Virus record (IMG/VR): IMGVR_UViG_2645727901_000008
Length of the DNA stretch: 64,000 nucleotides
DNA from: a virus
Lineage: Duplodnaviria; Heunggongvirae; Uroviricota; Caudoviricetes
Direction: 5' to 3' (one strand)
Below are positions 2,876-53,022 of the stretch, piece after piece. Position numbers and translations under genes: made by a program. The notes under the pieces are model-generated. The model did not search any database and was not told the DNA's origin. It worked only from the letters and a program-made list of their open reading frames with translations. Each line of letters begins with the position of its first letter. The first letter of the stretch is position 1.

Positions 2876-3852
2876 TTGTTCGGCACTCCTAATATCATTC
2901 GTGTTGTGTAGCCTACGCGGTCTTCAAAGTGCGCAACATTTTTTACTATCAGCTTGCGGGGCATTGATTCATCAATGCGGTTTTCCTGGTCATAGCGGTA
3001 TACGATAATCTCTATTACCATTCCCGGTTTTATATCCGGATTGCCTGCGACTTCTATATCCATTTTGGGGACGAGAGACAGCTGCATATTGCGAAGAGTT
3101 TCCATATCAGAATCGGATATATAACGCACTGGGAGTGAGCTATCGCCATATTCGACGTAGCCATCGGTCATGGAATACCCAACAAAACGATATTGATTCT
3201 TTGCTGTTGTCGCATGTTCCTGTTGGAGTAGGCGCATTTTGGACAAAGTGTATTCTGCTTTAGGGTTATTCCCCTCGTAGGTAAATGATGGCGTTTGCTT
3301 CATCAGATCAGCCAGGGTGTAAAAGTTAAATTCCCCACGGCATACCCAACATAATGCACCTTTGTCTCGCGCTATCTGCGAGAGCATTTTTGACGGTTTG
3401 TCACCGGCATTCAGATGATATGTAACTGCGCGTTTTAGCACGCTGCTGGTAATTTTAAGCTTGCCGGAATATGCCTTGAATATAGCGTCTGGTGTTTTGT
3501 TGGTATGTAAATTTGTGCGCGGGGAGGGGATCTTAAACCTGCGCACGTCTTCACTGACAGCAATAACGGTAACAACATCACCAGCCAGCATTGCAGACGT
3601 AACAAAGAAGTCTGTTTTAAAAGTGCCTGCATTACCGTTTGGATCGCCCATTTCAGCCACCAGCGATGCACCGTATTTGGCTTTCCAGTCATCAATTACG
3701 GTGCCGGTAGCGTCATGAATTTCCAGTTTTAGCAAAGGGGCTTTGAGGCTGGTTTTTTCTACATATACTGCGGTAAAAATCCAGTCTCGTGGCACTTTGT
3801 TATCGTTAATGAGCACTGACTGTAGAAAATATTGTTGTAACTCCTGGGCCAC
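2872..3852 (-). CDS. Hypothetical phage protein (326 aa), possibly structural
   Basis: Long ORF tightly packed with neighbours on the same strand; no motif recognised. Confidence 0.45.
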   Translation of the reverse strand: MAQELQQYFLQSVLINDNKVPRDWIFTAVYVEKTSLKAPLLKLEIHDATGTVIDDWKAKYGASLVAEMGDPNGNAGTFKTDFFVTSAMLAGDVVTVIAVSEDVRRFKIPSPRTNLHTNKTPDAIFKAYSGKLKITSSVLKRAVTYHLNAGDKPSKMLSQIARDKGALCWVCRGEFNFYTLADLMKQTPSFTYEGNNPKAEYTLSKMRLLQQEHATTAKNQYRFVGYSMTDGYVEYGDSSLPVRYISDSDMETLRNMQLSLVPKMDIEVAGNPDIKPGMVIEIIVYRYDQENRIDESMPRKLIVKNVAHFEDRVGYTTRMILGVPNK

Positions 3853-14756: not shown

Positions 14757-15067
14757 ATTGGCAGCCTCCTTTGACTAAGTTAAGGAGCTACCGCGTGAGG
14801 TTCCAATCTCAATGGCGGTAGCACTGACTGGGTTGGAACTACCGGCGTCAAAGGGAACCGGCCTGCCTTTCGGCAGCCCAGCCAGCACTACCATTGATCT
14901 CTGAGCTAAACGCTACGTATGGCTGTGCGATGGCATGACACAAAAAAAGACGCTTTCGGCGTCTGTGTCGCCTTTGACATTATCCGGGGTTCCAATCCCG
15001 GCACCCGTTTTTCTAAGGTGCCGTAGAAATATACCCCACGATAATGCCAGGGCGCAACAGTCAGTAT

Positions 15068-15238: not shown

Positions 15239-15567
15239 TGACACCCCCAGCGCGAGTAAAGAATGCAGATTATCGCGTGAGTGGCGGACAACGAGTGATG
15301 GGAAAAGACAGTAGCTGTTCATAGTGTAGTGACTCCTTGCTTTCGGAGCCGCCATCGACTGTTCCACGGTCTGGTGGCGGCGCAATAAAGGCTGGAACAC
15401 CGTGAGTCAACGGGGGCTTTTCAGCCACCTATATTGCACCGCCATAGGTATAGCGGCGGCAATAATACGAAAAACTAAACAGTTTGTCTCAAAAAGTTGA
15501 CCGGTGTGCCAATCGGTAGTGAATGTACATCGGAGAAATTTACAATTCAACTTAAAATGTTAGAAAA

Positions 15568-36339: not shown

Positions 36340-36732
36340 CTACCAGCGAGACAAACGAACAACATGTTTCACTTTTGCGATCCACTTTCCGCGATAACTA
36401 TTGATTACGGCCTGTGCCAGCTTCAAATTGGCTTCAAAATCAGCCTTACTACCATCAGACTCCACCAGCATTCCTCCATCTATTTCTGGTAAACATAGAT
36501 AATCCTGCTCAACCTGCAGCGGCATTGATGGCTCTCTGAATGGCGTTACTTGCTCTGCTTTCCAGCGAAATCTAACCCTCATCCCCCTGGTGGTCATTAC
36601 TAGATAGCCTGTTATAGTGCTTTTATGGCCCACATCAGTACGCGTGGCATTGCATGACACGATCTTACAGTTAGCGATAGACCACTCCATATTGGTGGCC
36701 TGTTGAGTGCTTAATTTGGTAGTCCCGTACAT
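36340..36732 (-). CDS. Hypothetical protein (130 aa)
   Basis: ORF coupled to the upstream gene. Confidence 0.45.
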   Translation of the reverse strand: MYGTTKLSTQQATNMEWSIANCKIVSCNATRTDVGHKSTITGYLVMTTRGMRVRFRWKAEQVTPFREPSMPLQVEQDYLCLPEIDGGMLVESDGSKADFEANLKLAQAVINSYRGKWIAKVKHVVRLSRW

Positions 36733-37307
36733 CAGAAAGCCTCCCAGTCAGTCGCGATAATATCCACACCAGTTGCAAACCAGTCTGTCTGCGCCTGTAA
36801 ATCACCATTCATCATTACCAGGCGAGGCATCACCATCACATCGCACCCTTCCACAATATCGAATGCCTCTTCCGGCAAGAATTCGAAGAGCTTTTCTTTG
36901 CTGCCAATGCTGCCACGGAACATCGATATATAGCTCCCTTTAGGCCATGATGTCCGCCGGGCATCAAGCCCTTTCATCATCCAGTAAAAAGCCGAGGAAA
37001 AAGGGATATTCTTTTTGCCAATGATTACATTATTCGCTTCTGTGTACTTCAGGAACTTAACTAACCTTACCATTGACTCGGATAACGCAACGTATGGCTC
37101 ATGATTGATTGCTGACACGCTTACACCGTGCAATCCAACGCTTACCACTGTCATATCGCCGCTTTGTGCGGTTTCGATATTGACGCCTTTGCGAACTAAT
37201 GAGGCGTAAAGTTCCTCTCGCTTTTGGGTCCAGCGTTCACGCTTCCCTATGAAGTCACTCAAAATGAGATCTTCTTCTGCATATGCGTTATCGTTCGCCA
37301 TTAACAT
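36732..37307 (-). CDS. Hypothetical protein (191 aa)
   Basis: ORF in track. Confidence 0.45.
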   Translation of the reverse strand: MLMANDNAYAEEDLILSDFIGKRERWTQKREELYASLVRKGVNIETAQSGDMTVVSVGLHGVSVSAINHEPYVALSESMVRLVKFLKYTEANNVIIGKKNIPFSSAFYWMMKGLDARRTSWPKGSYISMFRGSIGSKEKLFEFLPEEAFDIVEGCDVMVMPRLVMMNGDLQAQTDWFATGVDIIATDWEAF

Positions 37308-37761
37308 AACGTCTCCTTTTTTACACGCGCGACTATCCCCCGGAAGTACCGGTAGTGATGTCGTAACTTCGTATTAATTAAGGGGTACAGCCTGAGCGGC
37401 TATATGATGAATTGAAAGGAGTTGTGGCGGTGGTGCCTCCACCTGCCAGGTTAGCCACTCCCGGCGACGTCACTTATCAGAACGTAGTGAATGAAAATGG
37501 CTTCGTCACGAGCGCATAGCCGCAATTACCACAACGGAAACGGCGCTCACGCTAATTAAACGCCTTTTCCTGTTGTGCGCCGTACTCTTCCGGCTGTCAC
37601 ACCGAATCGCCAGGATGGTGAGTCCTCGGTCCGACGATATGAACGGGGCTTGCACATTCCGGCTACCTGGTTTGTTGCCTGAGCTAGGGGAAAAGGTAAC
37701 CCCTTTAACGTCACCAGACCGCTAACGACGCATGTGCCATACGCCGTGTTACAACCAAATA

Positions 37762-37837
37762 TGGTGGCCCCTACCGGACTTGAACCGGTGACCGTGCGAT
37801 TATGAGTCGCCAGCTCTAACCACTGAGCTAAAGGGCC
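37762..37837 (-). tRNA. tRNA-Ile2 (anticodon CAU, ileX-like; would be read as Met without lysidine context)
   Basis: Reverse complement GGCCCTTTAGCTCAGTGGTTAGAGC...GACTCATAATCGC...GGTTCAAGTCC...GGGGCCACCA nearly matches E. coli ileX. Confidence 0.85.
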
Positions 37838-37848
37838 AATTAGTGTTT

Positions 37849-37962
37849 TATTTTCGACGCCTGAGATTCTTCGCGACTTGTTCTACGCCGTATACGATCA
37901 CAAGTAGAAACAGCAAAAACCATCCAGGGTTCTTATCGATATACGTCCAAAAATCCATCATG
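37849..37962 (-). CDS. Possible small membrane peptide (about 37 aa)
   Basis: Translation MMDFWTYIDKNPGWFLLFLLVIVYGVEQVAKNLRRRK. Confidence 0.25.
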
Positions 37963-38120
37963 AGTTCCTGAACGCACCTTCAATAATCGGCAATAGCAAT
38001 ACCACAGCTACTGAAACTAATGCCCCATCAGCCAACACCGACATCACTTTGCTGGTGAAATCCACCAGTACGGACAAAACGAGAAAGCCAATGGCGCCCG
38101 CAATACGCGCCTTGCCAATC
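37959..38120 (-). CDS. Possible small membrane protein (about 53 aa)
   Basis: Translation MIGKARIAGAIGFLVLSVLVDFTSKVMSVLADGALVSVAVVLLLPIIEGAFRNS. Confidence 0.25.
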
Positions 38121-38121
38121 A

Positions 38122-38577
38122 TTACAGATAATCTTCCACACGAAGGCCAAGACGGCGACCAACCTCTTCCAGAACCTTATGCTCCGCAGGTTCGATTTCA
38201 CCATCTGCTTCAGCGATCGTGAGCATGTTCACGAAGACTTCTTCCGCTTCTTTGGGATCGTTTTTGATATCTTCAATTTCGCGGAGGATATTCATGCGAC
38301 CAACACGGAAACCAGCTTCCAGTTGCTCAGTAAAACGGGTGATTGTTGCGGTAATTTCGTTGCCAAAATGACTTAAGCGAGGATTAGAGCGGACAAGCTG
38401 ATCAAGTTTCGCTGTTTCTTCCTTTTCGATTTCACCATCTGCGGCAGACACCAGCAAACAGCCACCGATGATGGCCTCCATCAGATCGCGATTCTCAACC
38501 CTTTTCAGCTCTACTTTTGCTGAAGCGACTTTCTTACCGAAAAATTTACCGAACATTGGTTTTCCCTCAATAAACAT
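38122..38577 (-). CDS. TerB-like (tellurite-resistance family) protein; start may be ATG at 38556
   Basis: Repeated helical ...ADGEIE... segments typical of TerB-like proteins; GAGGGAAAA RBS before the internal ATG. Confidence 0.5.
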   Translation of the reverse strand: MFIEGKPMFGKFFGKKVASAKVELKRVENRDLMEAIIGGCLLVSAADGEIEKEETAKLDQLVRSNPRLSHFGNEITATITRFTEQLEAGFRVGRMNILREIEDIKNDPKEAEEVFVNMLTIAEADGEIEPAEHKVLEEVGRRLGLRVEDYL

Positions 38578-38823
38578 GACGTATTTATTAGGTTGCGGTG
38601 CCTGGTGCCTCCAGGTGACGTTAACCAGTTAACAATTAACGCCGGGATTTTTGTCTTCACAATTAAGGAGGATTGTTTTAACTGTTCCGCGTGCGCTTAG
38701 CCGCATTCACCGCAATGGTAAGAGCACTTGGCTGGCTGGGCGGCGATGACGCCTGTACGCATTTGGTGAACCGGTTCTGCTTCCGGCATTCGCTTAATTA
38801 GCCAAATACTCTTAACGTTGCAC

Positions 38824-38910
38824 TGGCGGAGAGTAATGGAATCGAACCATCATCGCTTGCGCAATGGGACGGTTTTCAAGACCGCTTGAGCACCATGCTC
38901 CCTACTCTCC
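38824..38910 (-). tRNA. tRNA-Ser-like (anticodon UGA, long variable arm), atypical D-arm
   Basis: 7-bp acceptor GGAGAGT/ACTCTCC, anticodon loop CTTGAAA, T-loop TTCGATT, encoded CCA; folded by eye. Confidence 0.5.
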
Positions 38911-39045
38911 CGTTATTGTGGCGACCGGTGCTGATCTCCGGCTTGCGGTTATTTCAGACTCTCACGGGCGTTTAATTGCCCCGCCGAACAGCTCTTTTCC
39001 GCAATAGCTGCAATGTCTTTCGCGCATCAGCCTGCGCATTCACCA

Positions 39046-39135
39046 CAATGTTGAGAACACTGGTTGTCACGCTGCAACGCAACATTTATTCGTAGATTGG
39101 GATATGACCCCGTTACGCCAGTGTTCTCAACGTTG
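39046..39135. repeat. 18-bp inverted repeat CAATGTTGAGAACACTGG ... CCAGTGTTCTCAACGTTG flanking about 54 bp
   Basis: Read from sequence; one mismatch between arms. Confidence 0.55.
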
Positions 39136-39283
39136 TAGTGCCGGTTACGGTTCCGGCCAGGCCTCTTCCTCAACGGGTTGTTCTCCATACGGACTACCGT
39201 TTATTGGTCGTTCCTGCGGTTTATGTTGTGAAGCCAGATGCTTATCTTCTGGTTGCTTCAAAGAGCTGCACTTCATCACAACG

Positions 39284-39356
39284 GTAAGGGTACTTCGTAG
39301 GGATTCGAACCCTCTGCCAAGCACGGCGATCTCCGACGTCGCAAAATACCCTTACC
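39284..39356 (-). other. tRNA-like element with T-arm (GGGTTCGAATCCC) and 10-bp closing stem but no canonical anticodon arm; possible tRNA pseudogene
   Basis: Folded by eye; T-loop present, cloverleaf incomplete. Confidence 0.25.
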
Positions 39357-39364
39357 TGTTGCGT

Positions 39365-39440
39365 TGGTGCCGATTAACGGGATCGAACCGCTGACCATTC
39401 GCTTACAAAGCGACTGCTCTACCAACTGAGCTAAACCGGC
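39365..39440 (-). tRNA. tRNA-Thr (anticodon UGU)
   Basis: Reverse complement GCCGGTTTAGCTCAGTTGGTAGAGC...CTTTGTAAG...GGTTCGATCC...CGGCACCA. Confidence 0.85.
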
Positions 39441-39444
39441 AATT

Positions 39445-39531
39445 TGGTGGGGAGTGATGGAGTCGAACCACCCGAGTCGCAATGACAGTAGATTTACAGT
39501 CTACCCCGCTACCCCTACGGACTAACTCCCC
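39445..39531 (-). tRNA. tRNA-Tyr-like (anticodon GUA, class II long variable arm)
   Basis: Acceptor GGGGAGT/ACTCCCC, anticodon stem-loop GTAGA-CTGTAAA-TCTAC, T-loop TTCGACT, encoded CCA. Confidence 0.6.
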
Positions 39532-39536
39532 TAAAG

Positions 39537-39612
39537 TGGCGATGGTGGGTGGATTCGAACCACCGACCGACAGCTTAGAAGGCTGCTGCTCTATCCTACT
39601 GAGCTACACCAT
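39537..39612 (-). tRNA. tRNA-Arg (anticodon UCU)
   Basis: Reverse complement GATGGTGTAGCTCAGTAGGATAGAGC...CTTCTAA...GGTTCGAATCC...CACCATCGCCA. Confidence 0.85.
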
Positions 39613-40853
39613 CACTTGCCGGGTACGTCTCCGGCGAGGGCTTCCACCTCCGTATGCTTTTCGGCGCACCGCGCCCTGGCTGCAATTCAGTAACAGGGGA
39701 TGCATAACCCTGGCTTCCAGCGTGATTAGCGCCTTCAGCATGACGGGATATACCCGTAACCAACAAACTTTCCCATATACCATCAAACAATGGCTGTTAC
39801 GCGGGAGGGACGTAACAGGTAAGGGCGCTGACCAGAAAGACCTGACCCTTCTCATTCATCTGGTTAATCACACCAGCGCCCTTGCCTGTTATGTCTCCCC
39901 GTTCCCTAATACACAGACGGGGACACTCTGCGGTCGATTTTTTGACGGGGGACGACTCATACCCCGTGGCGTCTGGCTTCTTAGGCCGCTACCATCATCA
40001 GATCATCGTTTGCATTTACTTTAATGGTCGGTTTCTAAACCGCCGCAAAGCCGCTAACCATGACGAAAACCCTAAAAAAGCCCACCCGAAGATGGGCAAA
40101 TACGCTACATCTCACACAAGAAAGAAGCCGACTGCCTGAGCTGGATTCACTTTCAAATGCCCGCAGAAAGGGAACACAAGTCGGCTTCTTTCTTGATGCG
40201 GCACTCTCTCCGCCCGTCACCGTTCTGTCTCGGTTGTCGCGTTTGCCACGCCAGCCGTAACGAGGTTTAAAGTCTTTGCACGTTTCCATCACTCGACTGC
40301 CGTCTGTGGCTGTTCGTTGCAGCGGGGGTGCCTCCCCCTGGGGATATCCCCGGCCTTACCCCATTCTTTCAAGACACAATGCAAGGCCGCATCCGCATAG
40401 GTGCATTACCGCAACATTAAGGAGACTTAGGGCAAAAGGTAATCGCCACAAAAAAAATCCCTATGCCTCCTTAATGTTGAGGATGTGCATTGATGATGAT
40501 TCGATGCGGCGAGTCCCGTTACTCTCTGCCGGACCATCATCAATGAACATCTTAAAAAGACCTTCCGTGGCTCAACATGTCTTGTCGTTTACTCCGTAAA
40601 GTGCTCTCTCTGAAACCACTTTACGCACTAAACCTGCTGAACTTTGGCTTGCTCGGTGCCAAAGCGAGTCCCTGTATGTATGTAATTTTCTAACACTTTA
40701 ATTTGTTATTTGCTGGTGGGCGAACAACAACCAATAAGTGACTATCAAGCCCAGCAAGCGAAATGTGGCAACGCTCCACCAGCAAGGAAAATTCTAAGTT
40801 AAGTTACTCTCACAATCAATACGTTCGTTTAGTGAAATTAGATTTCTAACATT
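39613..40853. other. About 1.2 kb without a convincing CDS; rich in long-loop inverted repeats
   Basis: Only short, overlapping ORFs in all frames; 13-bp inverted repeat CAACATTAAGGAG...CTCCTTAATGTTG around 40408-40478 and others. Confidence 0.4.
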
Positions 40854-44054: not shown

Positions 44055-47000
44055 TTAGGCCGCATCGGCGATTATTTTACGCAATTCATCTACCGAGTAA
44101 CGCGTAGATACCATCCATGCAGGACGGTCAAAGTTCACATCAGCAACCGGGTTTGCTTCAAAATTCCAGAAACGCCCGCCAATCTTCTTAATCGCGTCTT
44201 TGGCGTTCCGTATTGTCGAGGAACCAGGTTGGTCGGCAATGAGATAAACCGCACCGACGTCCTCGCTGACACTCCACCAGCGCCCGCGAACACGCGCCTT
44301 AGCGCGAATCGGCTTATCATTAACCACAATGATATAGTCATCATTCGCCGCTTCATCAGCTCTGGCTTCAGCCACTGCCGCCTGCTCTTCTCTTTTGCTT
44401 TCAGCCTGTTCAAGCCTTTCCGCGATCTCTGATTCGGTGGCCCCGCCGTTTTTCAGCGATACATAGTCTTGCCACGTTGCTGATTTGAGCGCATCCGGCA
44501 ACTCATTCACATAGTCACCGTCTTTCAACTCACGGGCGCGGCGGGTAGCCATTTCTACCAGGCGATTAACAGAAACAGCATCAGCAAAATCGTCCTTACT
44601 AATGTGTTTTTCATCAAATGCATTGATGACAGCCCCCACCTTAATCCACTGCGCTGCTGGCGAATCCAGAGGATTATCGGCCTGAACAATGGCTAATTTC
44701 GCTCCATCGACACCATTATTAGCCAGCTGCTCCAATGCCGACCAGCCATCGGCATCGCTGAGTGATTTATATTGCTCAAACAATGCATCGCGCCAGGCCA
44801 CCAGCGCAGCTCGTGTTTTCTCAATTTTCGCCGTAATTTTCGCGGCCTTCACCTGATTAAACATCCGTTCAATGTCATCAGTGTTGCTAAAGGCTTTCAT
44901 CCTGCCCTGGAATAAACGGTATGCCACCACGGTCTTCCAGAAAGATTCCAGCCCTTCTCCGGACGGTTTACGGAACAGGCTAAGAATATCTTCAGAAGTA
45001 ACTTTATTAAGTGAGCGACCGGACAAACCACGCCCTGCCATCCAGTTTTCAAACTCCTGGGAAACATCATCCATCGTGGCCTGTGACCCCCATGCCTGCA
45101 TTCCCTGGATGTAATCATATCCATACAATGCCTGGAGGAATCCCTCGCCGTCCACGACATTCAGCGGGTTATCACTGGCTTGTATTTTTGCCACTTCACG
45201 CTTCAGCGCCTCATCGTTGCCATCAGGGTAAATCCACCGCTCAGGCGCTATATCCGATGCTCGCCCGATTTTTTGACCTATTACGCCATCATAAGCCGAT
45301 GACAGTGCAATCTGACCATCATCGGTGCGATAAGCCCAGTATTTAATAGCTGAACCACCGCCCCATACTCTACTAGGCTTCCCGGCAGTGACATTCATTA
45401 CCCCATTGCGAATAGCATCATAGAACTGATCGCGCGTAAGTGTTGTTGATAGCTGGTGGCATTGAACACCACGTGCAGCTGTTTCACGCGATTCTGCAAC
45501 TCCCTCTTCAAAGGTTACCGATTCAATTATCAGGTTAAAGGGCAAAAATAATGCCGTCCCCGGAGAACGAGAGTAACGACTAGCCACATCCAGCCAGGAT
45601 ATGCGGCACGTACACCCGCCCCTTTCCGCATCAATGGCGGTAACACGAACAATTGCTGTCGTATTGTGATTCTCATCGATGATCGCGCGATAATGGCTGC
45701 CCTTGTGCAACAAGATATTTTTCTCAGTGCGTACATACTCCTGTGGGTTCTGCAATACATCGGCATCAAGCTCCAGAACCCCGGCTTTAATCGCACGTTC
45801 CAGATCACCACGAGAACGTTTCATAACGGTGTCAGCGTCTTTAGCTCTGGTGATCGCAAAGCGTAGCTCCCGCACACGTTTTCTGTAGTCTCGCAACTGT
45901 TCCAGAACATATTTCTGCCCGTTCCTGTTCGTCCCCGCTTTAATCAGGTCGTCAAGATTGCGCTGGTAATGCTCTACCTGCTCCATCGCGCTTTTCAGTT
46001 CTGTCTCCATCATGCCGATATCTTTCCCGGCAGCATTCGCCGCTTTCAGGTAGTTATCGAGAGCATTATTGGCTTCGCGTAGGGCTTTCAGTTTCAGACG
46101 TTCTTCACGCTCTTGCGCCTGACGACTCATGATTGCACGGCGTTCTTCCGGATTTGCCGCCAGCATAATGGCGCGTTCATCTGCGTCATCCGCATCACCA
46201 TTGGCGATCTCTGACATGTCGGAGGTCATCACCATATTGATCCAGTCCTTCTTACGTTTCAGCGTATCCAGACGGAAGTCATCAAATGTGCCTTTGCCAC
46301 AATAGTAGTGAACATTGACCTTTTCTTGTGGTGAGCCTACCCGAGCGCCGCGCCCATTACGTTGGTCGATACTGGCAGGAGTCCAGGGTAGTGTCAGATG
46401 GTGGATATCGGTTGTCCCGATGTGCAAGTTAATACCTACTTCAGCCTTCTTGTTACAGATTATGATGCGCGTGCGACCTTCGTTATAGTCGGCGGCAATA
46501 CCTTCCATGCCCTCAAGGCCAGCATCATTTTTAGCTGAGAGATAATCCTCATATTGGGCAAGTTTGCTGTAGTAGGTTTCCCATGCACCTTCTTTGTATT
46601 CACCGTTTTTATTTGGCGTAGGTTCAGTCGGCTTATTCACCTTCTTCAGCTTGACGCCGCCAGCCTGGCTAACTGTCGTCGCATTGATAATGCCTATCTC
46701 CTGCTCCGGCATTTGCAGTGCACTGGCAATAATACGGCGCAGCTTCTGGTGCTGGGCTTTTTCATCAATGAAGACGATTTGTTTACCGTTCTTCAGACCT
46801 TCACGAAGGTTTTCGATCAGCGCGGCATACTTCGGCGGGATGGGGTGTGATACCTGCTGCATATCAATACCGGCAGCCGCAATGGCCTTCAGTATTTCAG
46901 CTTCCAGTTCAATGCCAGCACGTATTTCAACATGCGACGGATGTTCGCTAAAGGTGGTCTTCACTACCTTGCTGGCACGCGTACTGACCAGCCCACCAGC

Positions 47001-52692: not shown

Positions 52693-53022
52693 AGTTACGG
52701 CCTCACTAACAGGTTTAACAACCTGCTACCCGCTGCTAAACAGGTGGCAGGACGTGACGGGGTTAGCAGACTGGCGTTAGTGAAACCAGCAGGCCGAAGC
52801 CTCCCCATCACGCCCCACCATAATTTGGGCGTAACGCGGTTTTACGGACACAAAAATACCGCAATATCGGATATCTGCGGTTGTCCGCACTAACATTCAG
52901 GCTGCTAAACCCGGTCGCAGAATTTGCTACGACGACATGAATATAAGCCTGAAAACATGGAAGATCAACTAAAAATTTCAGCAATAGATGACTTCAGTCG
53001 ATGATGCAGATCATACATTCCG

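Follow-up and report, generated by a model that had tools for sequence, protein, structure and literature searches.

The tRNA region of P1-type phage-plasmids and related systems

The tRNA region of the phage-plasmid P1 has the order Pban, 'dicF-like' region, trnA (Asn), trnT (Thr), plp and upl on the other strand, tciA, tciB, tciC, trnI (Ile2, anticodon CAU) and ban, and phage D6 carries a set of Asn, Thr, 'Ser' and Ile genes. Here we describe the corresponding region in a stretch of viral DNA of 64,000 nucleotides (nt), IMG/VR record IMGVR_UViG_2645727901_000008 (Caudoviricetes), which is referred to as the window and in which five tRNA genes on the minus strand are interspersed with two kinds of structured module, HP hairpins and closed S units. 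The position of the tRNA genes and their order relative to tciA and tciB are shared by P1, D6 and the window, the Thr and Ile2 genes are orthologous, and the hairpin/S spacer that follows Thr is nearly identical in all three. In contrast, P1 and D6 have an Asn gene at the spot where the window has an Arg-UCU and Tyr-GUA pair. P1 is without a Ser gene and has plp and upl annotated on the opposite strand instead, and its downstream gene ban is replaced in the window by a Tad2-like gene, lpa and pacA. We consider it probable (about 0.7) that the locus is a P1/D6-type tRNA operon in which four tRNAs compensate for codon usage, a tRNA-Tyr serves counter-defence, and the HP and S modules act as punctuation of the RNA.

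Several other systems resemble parts of this locus. The rV5-type (Vequintavirus-like) lytic coliphages such as phita32 have the gene order Arg-Tyr-Ser-(tRNA-like)-Thr-Met-Pro, their Arg, Tyr and atypical Ser genes are homologous to those of the window (~83% identity over the Arg-Tyr-Ser set), and the module after Ser, the interior of hairpin HP3, is common to both. They are, however, large lytic myoviruses in which none of the S units was seen, and the common interior is enclosed by a different stem sequence. The processing stems cut by RNase III in rRNA operons are long inverted repeats around structured RNA in an untranslated polycistronic transcript that also carries tRNAs, and RNAs C and D of the T4 tRNA cluster are small stable RNAs of obscure role that are co-transcribed with phage tRNAs; the likeness of both to the HP/S array is one of layout, that is, an analogy. 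STnc100 and PasD, small RNAs (sRNAs) of lambdoid and Stx prophages, have the closing helix UUGYGGUG...CACCRCAA and the 3' GGAG-loop hairpin in common with the S units. Their relatives occupy the interval from Q to the lysis genes or a site immediately 3' of stx2B, whereas the S units of the window lie within a tRNA operon and have no terminators of their own. STnc100 is Rfam family RF02076; no Rfam family includes the HP partner. The PasD/STnc100 relatives are abundant, Hfq-bound sRNAs (bioRxiv 10.64898/2026.05.13.724894).

Identity of the element and its five tRNA genes

A sequence search with positions 37400-40000 of the window returned a 100% match to plasmid P2 of E. coli GZ2408P. In the 100% identical RefSeq plasmid record NZ_JBYCWU010000003.1 all five tRNA genes are annotated by the Prokaryotic Genome Annotation Pipeline (PGAP), the gene with anticodon CAT as tRNA-Ile. 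The same interval is 95-97% identical to many ~90-kb plasmids of E. coli and Salmonella and to phage D6 (95% in the tRNA region) and shows partial similarity to P7 and P1. Judged from these matches, the source of the window is a D6-like, P1-family phage-plasmid of E. coli, and the minus strand from ~40850 to 37310 is by synteny its tRNA/accessory operon, the counterpart of the leader of the C1-controlled ban operon of P1. The operon spans ~3.4 kb, is largely untranslated and has two or three small protein genes. The tRNA cluster is thus already known, being annotated in the identical plasmid and part of the long-known P1/D6-type phage-plasmid tRNA region; the HP/S array is the sole part of our findings that may be new.

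ARAGORN called exactly five tRNA genes in the window, all on the minus strand and each with an encoded CCA end (5/5). In the direction of transcription these are tRNA-Arg(UCU) at 39537-39613 (77 nt; Rfam tRNA score 72.1 bits; ~83% identical to the rV5-type Arg gene), tRNA-Tyr(GUA) at 39445-39531 (87 nt, with a long variable arm; 41.9 bits), tRNA-Thr(UGU) at 39365-39440 (76 nt; 65.2 bits), a tRNA-Ser(UGA)-like gene at 38824-38910 (87 nt, G73; annotated as tRNA-Ser by PGAP) and the lysidine-type tRNA-Ile2(CAU) at 37762-37837 (64.7 bits), which is the orthologue of the annotated P1 trnI. Under ARAGORN defaults all five have a 7-bp acceptor stem, D, anticodon and T arms, a 7-nt anticodon loop and a T-loop of the form UUCRANY, and they are structurally sound. 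The gathering score of Rfam RF00005 was passed by four of the five (Arg, Thr, Ile2 and Tyr); as overlapping matches within an Rfam clan were reduced to the best one, the plain tRNA score of the Ser-like gene is hidden behind its tRNA-Sec match. The first-pass annotation of this DNA, made from the letters alone, had placed a minus-strand tRNA cluster at 37762-39612, and both the cluster and its start agree with the gene calls, while its end falls one base further, at 39613. It had also taken the Ile gene for the CAU isoacceptor of the Ile2 type, which is borne out by the PGAP name in the identical record and by the P1 orthologue, annotated as 89% identical to ileX. The acceptor stem of this tRNA (GGCCCUU.../...AGGGGCC in the ARAGORN structure) places C4-G69 and C5-G68, the determinants recognized by TilS, at the expected pairs.

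The tRNA-Thr has a G27-A43 mismatch that tops the anticodon stem, and this stem is unlike that of P1 trnT and of the D6 Thr gene. Because of this difference and of the rV5 relationship of the Arg-Tyr-Ser set, the Arg-Tyr-Thr block looks like a cassette that was swapped in to replace Asn-Thr. Downstream of tRNA-Ile2, a stretch on the minus strand (37632-37715) resembles the 5' half of a tRNA (CCCCUAGCUCAGG). It is conserved in P1, was called by ARAGORN (as Ala-agc) at 80% thresholds only, and may be another tRNA remnant.

Atypical tRNA-Ser and tRNA-Tyr

The unusual D-arms ascribed to the Ser-like and Tyr-like genes at first reading are real, as is evident from the ARAGORN structures, the Rfam matches and alignments with E. 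coli K-12 genes. The Ser-like tRNA has a connector of one or three nt in place of two, A8, a short D-loop and a compact, Sec-like D-arm, and the Tyr tRNA has a 4-nt connector ahead of the D-stem CCGU/GCGG. A host-like D-arm, with a 3-bp stem, a large loop and a U8 plus N9 connector, was found in neither, and in this part they could not be aligned with K-12 serT and tyrU. The features of class II tRNAs, namely a long paired variable arm, the discriminator base and the anticodon, are present in both, and the anticodon stem-loop, discriminator base and long variable arm are retained relative to serT and tyrU. The variable arm of Ser is a 6-bp stem with a GCAA loop (anticodon UGA, discriminator G73), and that of Tyr is a 3-bp stem capped by the loop AUUGC, in place of the ACA of the host (anticodon GUA, discriminator A73). 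In the rV5-type lytic phage phita32 the same odd Ser and Tyr architecture is kept, and the Ser variable arm has its stem formed by other base pairs (GC-GCAA-GC in the window against GAG-GAUGA-CUC in phita32). Such a compensatory change points to selection for a working tRNA and argues against decay. Both atypical genes look functional by this comparison, and both were accepted by ARAGORN and PGAP, where a rejection by the predictors had been named at first reading as the outcome that would speak against them.

As the best Rfam match of the Ser-like gene is tRNA-Sec (RF01852), we considered that identity and set it aside, since the gene scores 43.5 bits where RF01852 demands 47, and since its anticodon is not UCA but UGA, the one that pairs with the serine codon UCA. 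Its acceptor/T stack can be drawn as 7+5 or 8+4, 12 bp in total, as compared to 8+5 in tRNA-Sec. The D6 record remarks on its Ser gene 'AA not called by tRNAscan-SE', and PGAP names the D6-type variant, which has a D-stem C where the window has A, tRNA-OTHER. The interval from tRNA-Ser to tRNA-Thr in phita32 holds a tRNA-like sequence that is missing from the annotation (2963-3061 of the retrieved contig L006). ARAGORN reports it as 'tRNA-???' and assigns it an anticodon of four bases (atcc); its acceptor stem, D-arm and T-arm are good, and its extra arm is very long.

Codon usage and counter-defence

To relate the tRNA set to codon demand we counted codons in the 62 open reading frames (ORFs) of the window with 100 codons or more. 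The frequencies of ATA, AGA, ACA and TCA were 2.9, 3.4, 2.2 and 1.8 times those of K-12, and TAT/TAC stood at ~1.05 times, that is, at host level; the ORF set is a crude one and the K-12 frequencies were taken as background values, so the ratios are approximate. Codon compensation, which had been proposed at first reading, is therefore plausible for Ile2, Arg-UCU, Thr-UGU and Ser-UGA, the cognate A-ending codons of which are used 1.8-3.4 times as often as in the host, and does not extend to Tyr. In the proposed mechanism, Ile2 (for AUA, once its anticodon carries lysidine), Arg-UCU (AGA/AGG), Thr-UGU (ACA) and Ser-UGA (UCA) would add decoding capacity for these over-used codons.

Retron-Eco7 and Septu PtuAB cut the variable arm of host tRNA-Tyr, and infection is rescued by the tRNA-Tyr genes of T5 and T6 (PMC11555353, PMC13096335). 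The tRNA-Tyr of the window resembles those of T5 and T6 in being a phage-borne GUA gene; it exceeds codon need, and its variable loop is unlike that of the host. T5 and T6 are lytic phages with a large tRNA-rich region, while the element described here is a temperate phage-plasmid. Since codon usage leaves Tyr unexplained, the variable loop is altered and a Tad2-like gene is adjacent, the most likely role by analogy would be that of a spare or cleavage-resistant tRNA-Tyr against nucleases of the Septu and Retron-Eco7 PtuAB kind. With its Tyr gene beyond codon need and its Tad2-like neighbour, the Arg-Tyr variant marks this common phage-plasmid family, found in E. coli and Salmonella, as a candidate for tRNA-based counter-defence against these systems.

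An array of HP hairpins and S units

The tRNA genes are set in a regular series of modules. Read on the minus strand from ~40480, the order is HP(-1), S0, terminator, HP0, tRNA-Arg, tRNA-Tyr, tRNA-Thr, HP1, S1, spacer, HP2, S2, tRNA-Ser, HP3, S3, tciA, tciB, tRNA-Ile2 and S4 (to ~37420), with the Tad2-like gene after it. The array comprises no fewer than five HP hairpins in alternation with closed S units, of which there are four to five, and the tRNA and protein-gene cassettes occupy the slots between them. The HP stems measure 14-23 bp and adjoin the 3' ends of tRNAs, and their bases read (A/G)CAAC...GUUG(U/C); the S units start with UUGYGGUGAAU and finish with CACCRCAA.

For delineation of the S family, copies were fetched from IMG/VR with the 14-mer TTGTGGTGAATGCG, which gave 70 genuine units; their ends are conserved, and the middle, 87-153 nt in length, is hypervariable. 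A covariance model, R1, was built from 16 of the IMG/VR units, with no window or P1 sequence included, and describes an S unit as a closing helix, a 5' hairpin and a 3' GGAG-loop hairpin around a variable middle. On the tRNA strand of the window R1 found S2 (38915-39049, type A) at 84.6 bits (E 3e-20), S3 (38592-38716, type B, upstream of tciA) at 43.3 bits (E 2e-9), S4 (37421-37535, upstream of the Tad2-like gene, also supported by its fold) at 24.1 bits (E 1e-5 to 2e-4) and S1 (39225-39282, a minimal unit of closing helix and 3' hairpin) at 18.6 bits (E 4e-4 to 6e-3), while the mirror strand reached only 6-9 bits. With filters off, S0 (40316-40415) was a marginal match at 10.5 bits (E 0.05). 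S3 is the unit closest to STnc100, with 38.9 bits over positions 31-147 of the 206 of RF02076 and below its gathering score of 47; the other S units of the window and typical viral S units of types A and B gave no STnc100 match at the Rfam gathering threshold. By their core helices the S units are related to STnc100/PasD, and on these scores they are not members of RF02076. S2 is 99% identical to a PL-proximal leader element of an Stx2c phage and ends 4 nt ahead of tRNA-Ser.

Two features of the S units were noted in the IMG/VR contigs. In type A units the loop of the 5' hairpin, GCUGAU, is complementary to the 3' loop, AUCAGC, and one contig, L116, changes both (GCGAU/AUCGC); the complementarity is nearly invariant and, with this one compensatory example, we tentatively suggest a kissing loop-loop contact. 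The GGAG motif is exposed in the 3' loop of all S types (contigs L011-L130).

The HP hairpins were located by folding. HP(-1) lies at 40408-40480 on the minus strand, so that it makes up 40316-40480 together with S0; HP0 (39800-39905, upstream of tRNA-Arg, arms AACAGGCAAGGGCGCUG / CAGCGCCCUUACCUGUU) produced microRNA-model noise on both strands in Rfam; HP1 is at 39284-39361; HP2 (39046-39138, inverted repeat I1, z = -5.9) has 23-nt arms and an interior with GGGGUCAUAUCCC, which recurs in other HP interiors; and HP3 is at 38711-38822 (z = -4.3), its interior being matched in lambda and rV5-type phages. Among 43 distinct viral contexts an HP lies directly 5' of the S unit in most, and its stem sequence varies while pairing is kept. 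Across 35 distinct HP stems, including the five of the window, 94% of the pairs were canonical, as against 0.69-0.89 in column-shuffled sets and ~0.4 in shifted registers, although the apparent pairing is inflated as the set was chosen by RNAfold and then by eye. Changes on both sides were seen at 16 of 18 pairs in one register and at 9 of 17 in the other. The G-U pairs exceed the A-C mismatches by 41:8, which indicates that the folded strand is the tRNA-sense RNA. The 3' arms UGCUCUUUCC / UGCUCUUACC bear what we take to be a resemblance to boxA, on which no claim is made.

Between S1 and HP2 lies a conserved spacer module (39135-39224, minus strand; repeats D6 and D7) that ends in the T-arm/CCA-like GCCGGAACCGUAACCGGCACUA. 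It is shared with Citrobacter phage phiNP, where it is 88% identical, and with IMG/VR contig L126, where it follows an S unit; judged by eye, it is possibly a decayed tRNA 3' end. The plasmid ptetA has an extra S plus HP pair, a 196-nt insertion, exactly at the HP1/S1 junction between CTTACCGTTGTGATGAA repeats.

The sixth tRNA-like element is hairpin HP1

The first-pass annotation had listed a sixth, tRNA-like element at 39284-39356, with a closing stem and a T-arm and no anticodon arm, and had offered a pseudogene, a decoy or a processing element as its nature. The structural description is accurate by folding: the stem, CAAC-A-GGUAAGGGUAUUUUG / CGAAGUACCCUUACC-GUUG, closes the element from 39356 to 39284, the T-arm-like hairpin AGGG-UUCGAAU-CCCU is canonical, one more small hairpin accompanies it in the interior, and the anticodon arm is missing. 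By the criterion that the Ser-like and Tyr-like genes withstood, the element was rejected as a tRNA or tRNA pseudogene, since ARAGORN never called it at thresholds of 100, 90, 80, 70 or 60%; the low-threshold calls elsewhere in the window were scattered noise with implausible introns. Rfam returned no match to it at E values up to 10. The element is copy 1 of a three-copy repeat family, D2, within the spacer, and its stem forms inverted repeat I5. A lone pseudogene or decoy does not describe it well, as its 'acceptor-like' stem is the generic stem of the HP family, which alternates with STnc100-like units and recurs in lambda and many other phages. The processing element, by analogy, is the most plausible of the three options.

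The HP1 interior (GCGACGUCGGAGAUCGCC ... CAGAGGGUUCGAAUCCCUACG) was found in 86 complete viral copies and is nearly invariant; most copies are P1-type and lie after tRNA-Thr. In the podovirus BUCT554 the interior sits inside another stem, GAGCAUUGCG/CGCAGUGCUC instead of GGGUAUUUUG/CGAAGUACCC, and in IMG/VR contig L206 inside a third, unrelated stem that follows a terminator. In all three contexts the closing stem ends 1 nt from the 3' strand of the T-arm-like hairpin. From this comparison the conserved part of HP1 is the interior, set in a generic HP stem, and the fact that it is kept in three different stems speaks against a neutral pseudogene. A tRNA fragment may have been the origin of this interior. 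By inspection, T-arm-like hairpins occur in ~5-6 of ~40 distinct HPs, including those of contigs L013, L019, L030 and L052; an earlier count of 1 in 46 from an ungapped-arm collector was discarded because false hairpins were mixed in and bulged ones were missed. The variable middle of the L116 S unit has two T-arm-like hairpins, GGGGUUCGAAUCCCC and UAGGUUCGACUCCUA, which places T-arm modules inside S units as well as HP hairpins.

Occurrence of the modules in other phages

The HP and S modules are found well beyond P1-type elements. In lambda an HP follows immediately after tR' and is succeeded by a closed unit, the interior of which (lambda 44866-44930) is 97% identical to the HP3 interior; the lambda record has no annotated feature at this site. 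In an Stx2c phage an S2-identical unit starts at +1 of a PL-like promoter with a terminator after it, and in mEp460 an S unit lies 3' of the repressor gene. Lambdoid contigs show the order HP-S-HP-S-tRNA-Arg-tRNA-Ile(CAU), where the tRNA begins right after the 'CACCACAAC ACAAC' end of the S unit, as tRNA-Ser does in the window. The HP3 interior follows tRNA-Ser in rV5-type phages within a stem of other sequence, and BUCT554 also carries the HP1-interior module.

On this distribution we tentatively propose, as a less than even prospect, that the modules represent an undescribed and widespread class of phage leader RNA. Its covarying HP stems (ACAAC...GUUGU) would hold exchangeable RNA cassettes, some of them T-arm minihelix-like, and would be paired with units of the STnc100/PasD type: as HP-S after tR' in lambda, as S units heading PL-type operons in Stx-type phages and as HP-S between all the tRNA and moron slots in P1-type operons. 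Such a class could serve as a dedicated processing and stabilisation, or sRNA-display, system for acquired tRNAs and accessory genes. A literature search on the hairpin after tR' and on the ileZ/argN/argO context found nothing relevant; it was a narrow search, and a prior description is possible. The DNA between the tRNA genes is in our reading neither junk, a pseudogene nor the plp and upl genes but a set of conserved covarying RNA modules, which are also present in the lambda late leader and, beside toxin genes, in Stx phages.

Transcription and proposed function

Upstream of the array, the only promoter-like match is a sigma-70-like site, TTGATT-17-TAGAAT, at 40791-40819 on the minus strand, identified by consensus. 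A strong intrinsic terminator (GCCCATCTTCGGGTGGGC and a T-run) lies in the operon leader at 40080-40097, minus strand, and is homologous to the end of the P1 'dicF-like region'. The leader segment 40080-40200 of the minus strand, which ends in this terminator ahead of the tRNAs, gave no match to the Rfam DicF model and could encode a small RNA or act as an attenuator.

In the mechanism that we favour, the tRNAs would be excised from one long, mostly untranslated transcript by host tRNA-processing enzymes, and the HP and S modules would work as RNA, on the tRNA-sense strand. The double-stranded HP/S stems, of the RNase III type or protective, would separate and stabilise the tRNA precursors, and small structured RNAs held inside generic stems would be released. 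An RNA-level role is suggested because the operon of ~3.4 kb has few small genes, an upstream terminator, one weak promoter match and no C1 operator, and because the stems abut tRNA 3' ends and relatives of the S units accumulate as discrete sRNAs. By analogy, punctuation for RNA processing or stability is the most likely function of the HP/S modules. If the modules do control processing or stability of leaders, this would matter for how phage-borne tRNAs, toxins and anti-defence genes are expressed and would correct the annotation of reference phage genomes.

Several observations weigh against this account. The strong terminator (40097-40080) stands between the tRNAs and the sole promoter-like site. 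A search for the P1 C1 operator ATTGCTCTAATAAATTT with up to three mismatches allowed found no copy anywhere in the window, so that control of the operon by C1 as in P1 has no support for this D6-like element. The role in RNase III processing or punctuation is drawn by analogy with the rRNA-operon stems. The tRNA/accessory region was dispensable for lytic growth of P1 in a CRISPR interference screen (PMC10695390), which is expected for accessory functions. The anticodon loop of the Tyr tRNA is identical to that of the host and would give no escape from nucleases that cut there. For the Ser-like gene, the odd connector and D-arm, the tRNA-OTHER call in the D6 variant and the sub-threshold Sec score make serine a putative charging identity. 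The approximate codon ratios and the choice of the HP set by folding, as given above, belong here as well.

Alternative explanations

The tRNA genes and the sixth element can each be read differently. All five tRNAs might mainly serve counter-defence, replacing host tRNAs lost to anticodon nucleases, colicins or effectors of the PtuAB type, and this would account for the Tyr gene that codon usage leaves unexplained, for Ser and Tyr D-arms and variable arms that are strongly unlike those of the host, for the Tad2-like anti-defence gene in the locus and for the Arg/Tyr/Ser block in common with lytic rV5-type phages; rescue from tRNA-cleaving systems by phage tRNAs is moreover published (PMC11555353, PMC13096335). 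However, four of the five anticodons exactly match over-used A-ending codons, Ile2-CAU and Arg-UCU are classic rare-codon isoacceptors, and Tyr, Thr and Ser share their anticodon loops with the host and would not evade anticodon-loop cutters, so we hold this reading to be possible and rather doubtful. The sixth element might be a decayed tRNA pseudogene, left behind by a duplicated tRNA gene, neutral and itself without a role. It lies directly 3' of tRNA-Thr, its perfect T-arm-like hairpin 1 nt from the 3' strand of the closing stem resembles an acceptor/T minihelix, the neighbouring spacer also ends like a tRNA 3' end, and the T-arm-like hairpins of other HP interiors suggest capture of tRNA fragments. 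We find such an origin without function unlikely, because the interior is nearly invariant over its 86 viral copies and is held in three different, mutually compensating stems in unrelated phages (P1-type, BUCT554 and L206), because the 'acceptor' stem is also found on hairpins with unrelated interiors, and because no cloverleaf was recovered even at 60% thresholds.

For the array itself, the modules might be joints at the DNA level where phages exchange cassettes (tRNAs, morons) by homologous or site-specific means, with no function as RNA. Modules are indeed shuffled among relatives exactly at conserved junctions, as with the extra S plus HP pair of ptetA, identical interiors occur inside different stems, and the units adjoin or enclose tRNAs, tciA, the Tad2-like gene and, according to the literature, the stx operon of Stx2 phages. 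Recombination at repeats is nevertheless an expected side effect that need not be the selected function, and an explanation by DNA alone leaves aside the compensatory changes that keep the pairing, the 41:8 excess of G-U over A-C on the transcribed strand, the R1 scores of 84.6, 43.3, 24.1 and 18.6 bits on the tRNA strand against 6-9 on the opposite one, and the accumulation of S relatives as sRNAs; we regard it as improbable. The S units might instead be cis-acting processive antiterminators like the put RNA of HK022, reading through the leader terminator and the structured tRNA array. This would suit the Stx2c-type unit at +1 of a PL-like promoter and ahead of an intrinsic terminator, the mEp460 unit after the repressor gene, the late-operon HP-S that follows tR' and usually precedes another terminator, and, in the window, a terminator upstream of the tRNAs in an operon that is mostly untranslated. 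HK022 put is an element of ~70 nt with two stems, located just downstream of PL and PR, with sequence similarity between putL and putR, and the S units are similar to it in position only. R1 found no match in the PL- and PR-proximal put regions of HK022 and only a weak 16-bit match elsewhere in that phage, and the published structure of put, a V formed by two stems, lacks a closing helix (PMC9378689), by which homology of the S units to put was ruled out. The sole S-like unit upstream of the terminator in the window is the marginal S0, and P1 has no S unit between Pban and its terminator. From position alone put-like antitermination is possible, and as an explanation of the S units we rate it as more improbable again. 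Conservation of the spacer might, finally, reflect proteins encoded on the opposite strand, since plp and upl are annotated across the region in P1, RCS47 and others and a plus-strand ORF of 96 amino acids (39104-39394) is present in the window. No Pfam family supports either protein, PGAP placed no coding sequence here in any plasmid examined, the ORF overlaps tRNA-Thr (as plp overlaps trnT in P1) and is shorter than elsewhere (96 against 125 amino acids), the 196-nt insertion in ptetA, not being a multiple of three, breaks it, and the same DNA is accounted for by covarying RNA structure on the other strand. Opposite-strand coding was rejected on the absence of family support and the disruption in ptetA, and it retains hardly any credence with us. 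Coding sequences annotated opposite HP/S modules in P1 NC_005856 (contig L002, 2016-2585; plp and upl) and in BUCT554 (contig L133, 668-919; hypothetical protein) are probably spurious. Punctuation of an operon transcript by HP and S modules is the reading that we retain as probable for the array.

Neighbouring genes and other features

The sole clear protein genes within the array are tciA, with a TerB domain, and tciB, with DUF3927, at 37958-38557 on the minus strand. Downstream of the array the window has genes for the Tad2-like protein, a hypothetical protein, Lpa and PacA. The Tad2-like (anti-Thoeris) domain gene, at 36732-37307 on the minus strand, is assigned by its Pfam match (PF11195, 39.1 bits against a cut-off of 25) and its PGAP name; the protein had no match in NCBIfam.

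Elsewhere in the window, at 14811-15021, 15370-15449 and 52740-52946 on the minus strand, matches to C4 antisense RNA, isrK and the c4 target a1b1 were found, comprising two full pairs of C4 and isrK (77 and 70 bits), an a1b1 match and a third, weaker C4-like match (40 bits). The window seems to carry two immunity-I-type regions, and the C4 and isrK matches are consistent with a P1-family element.

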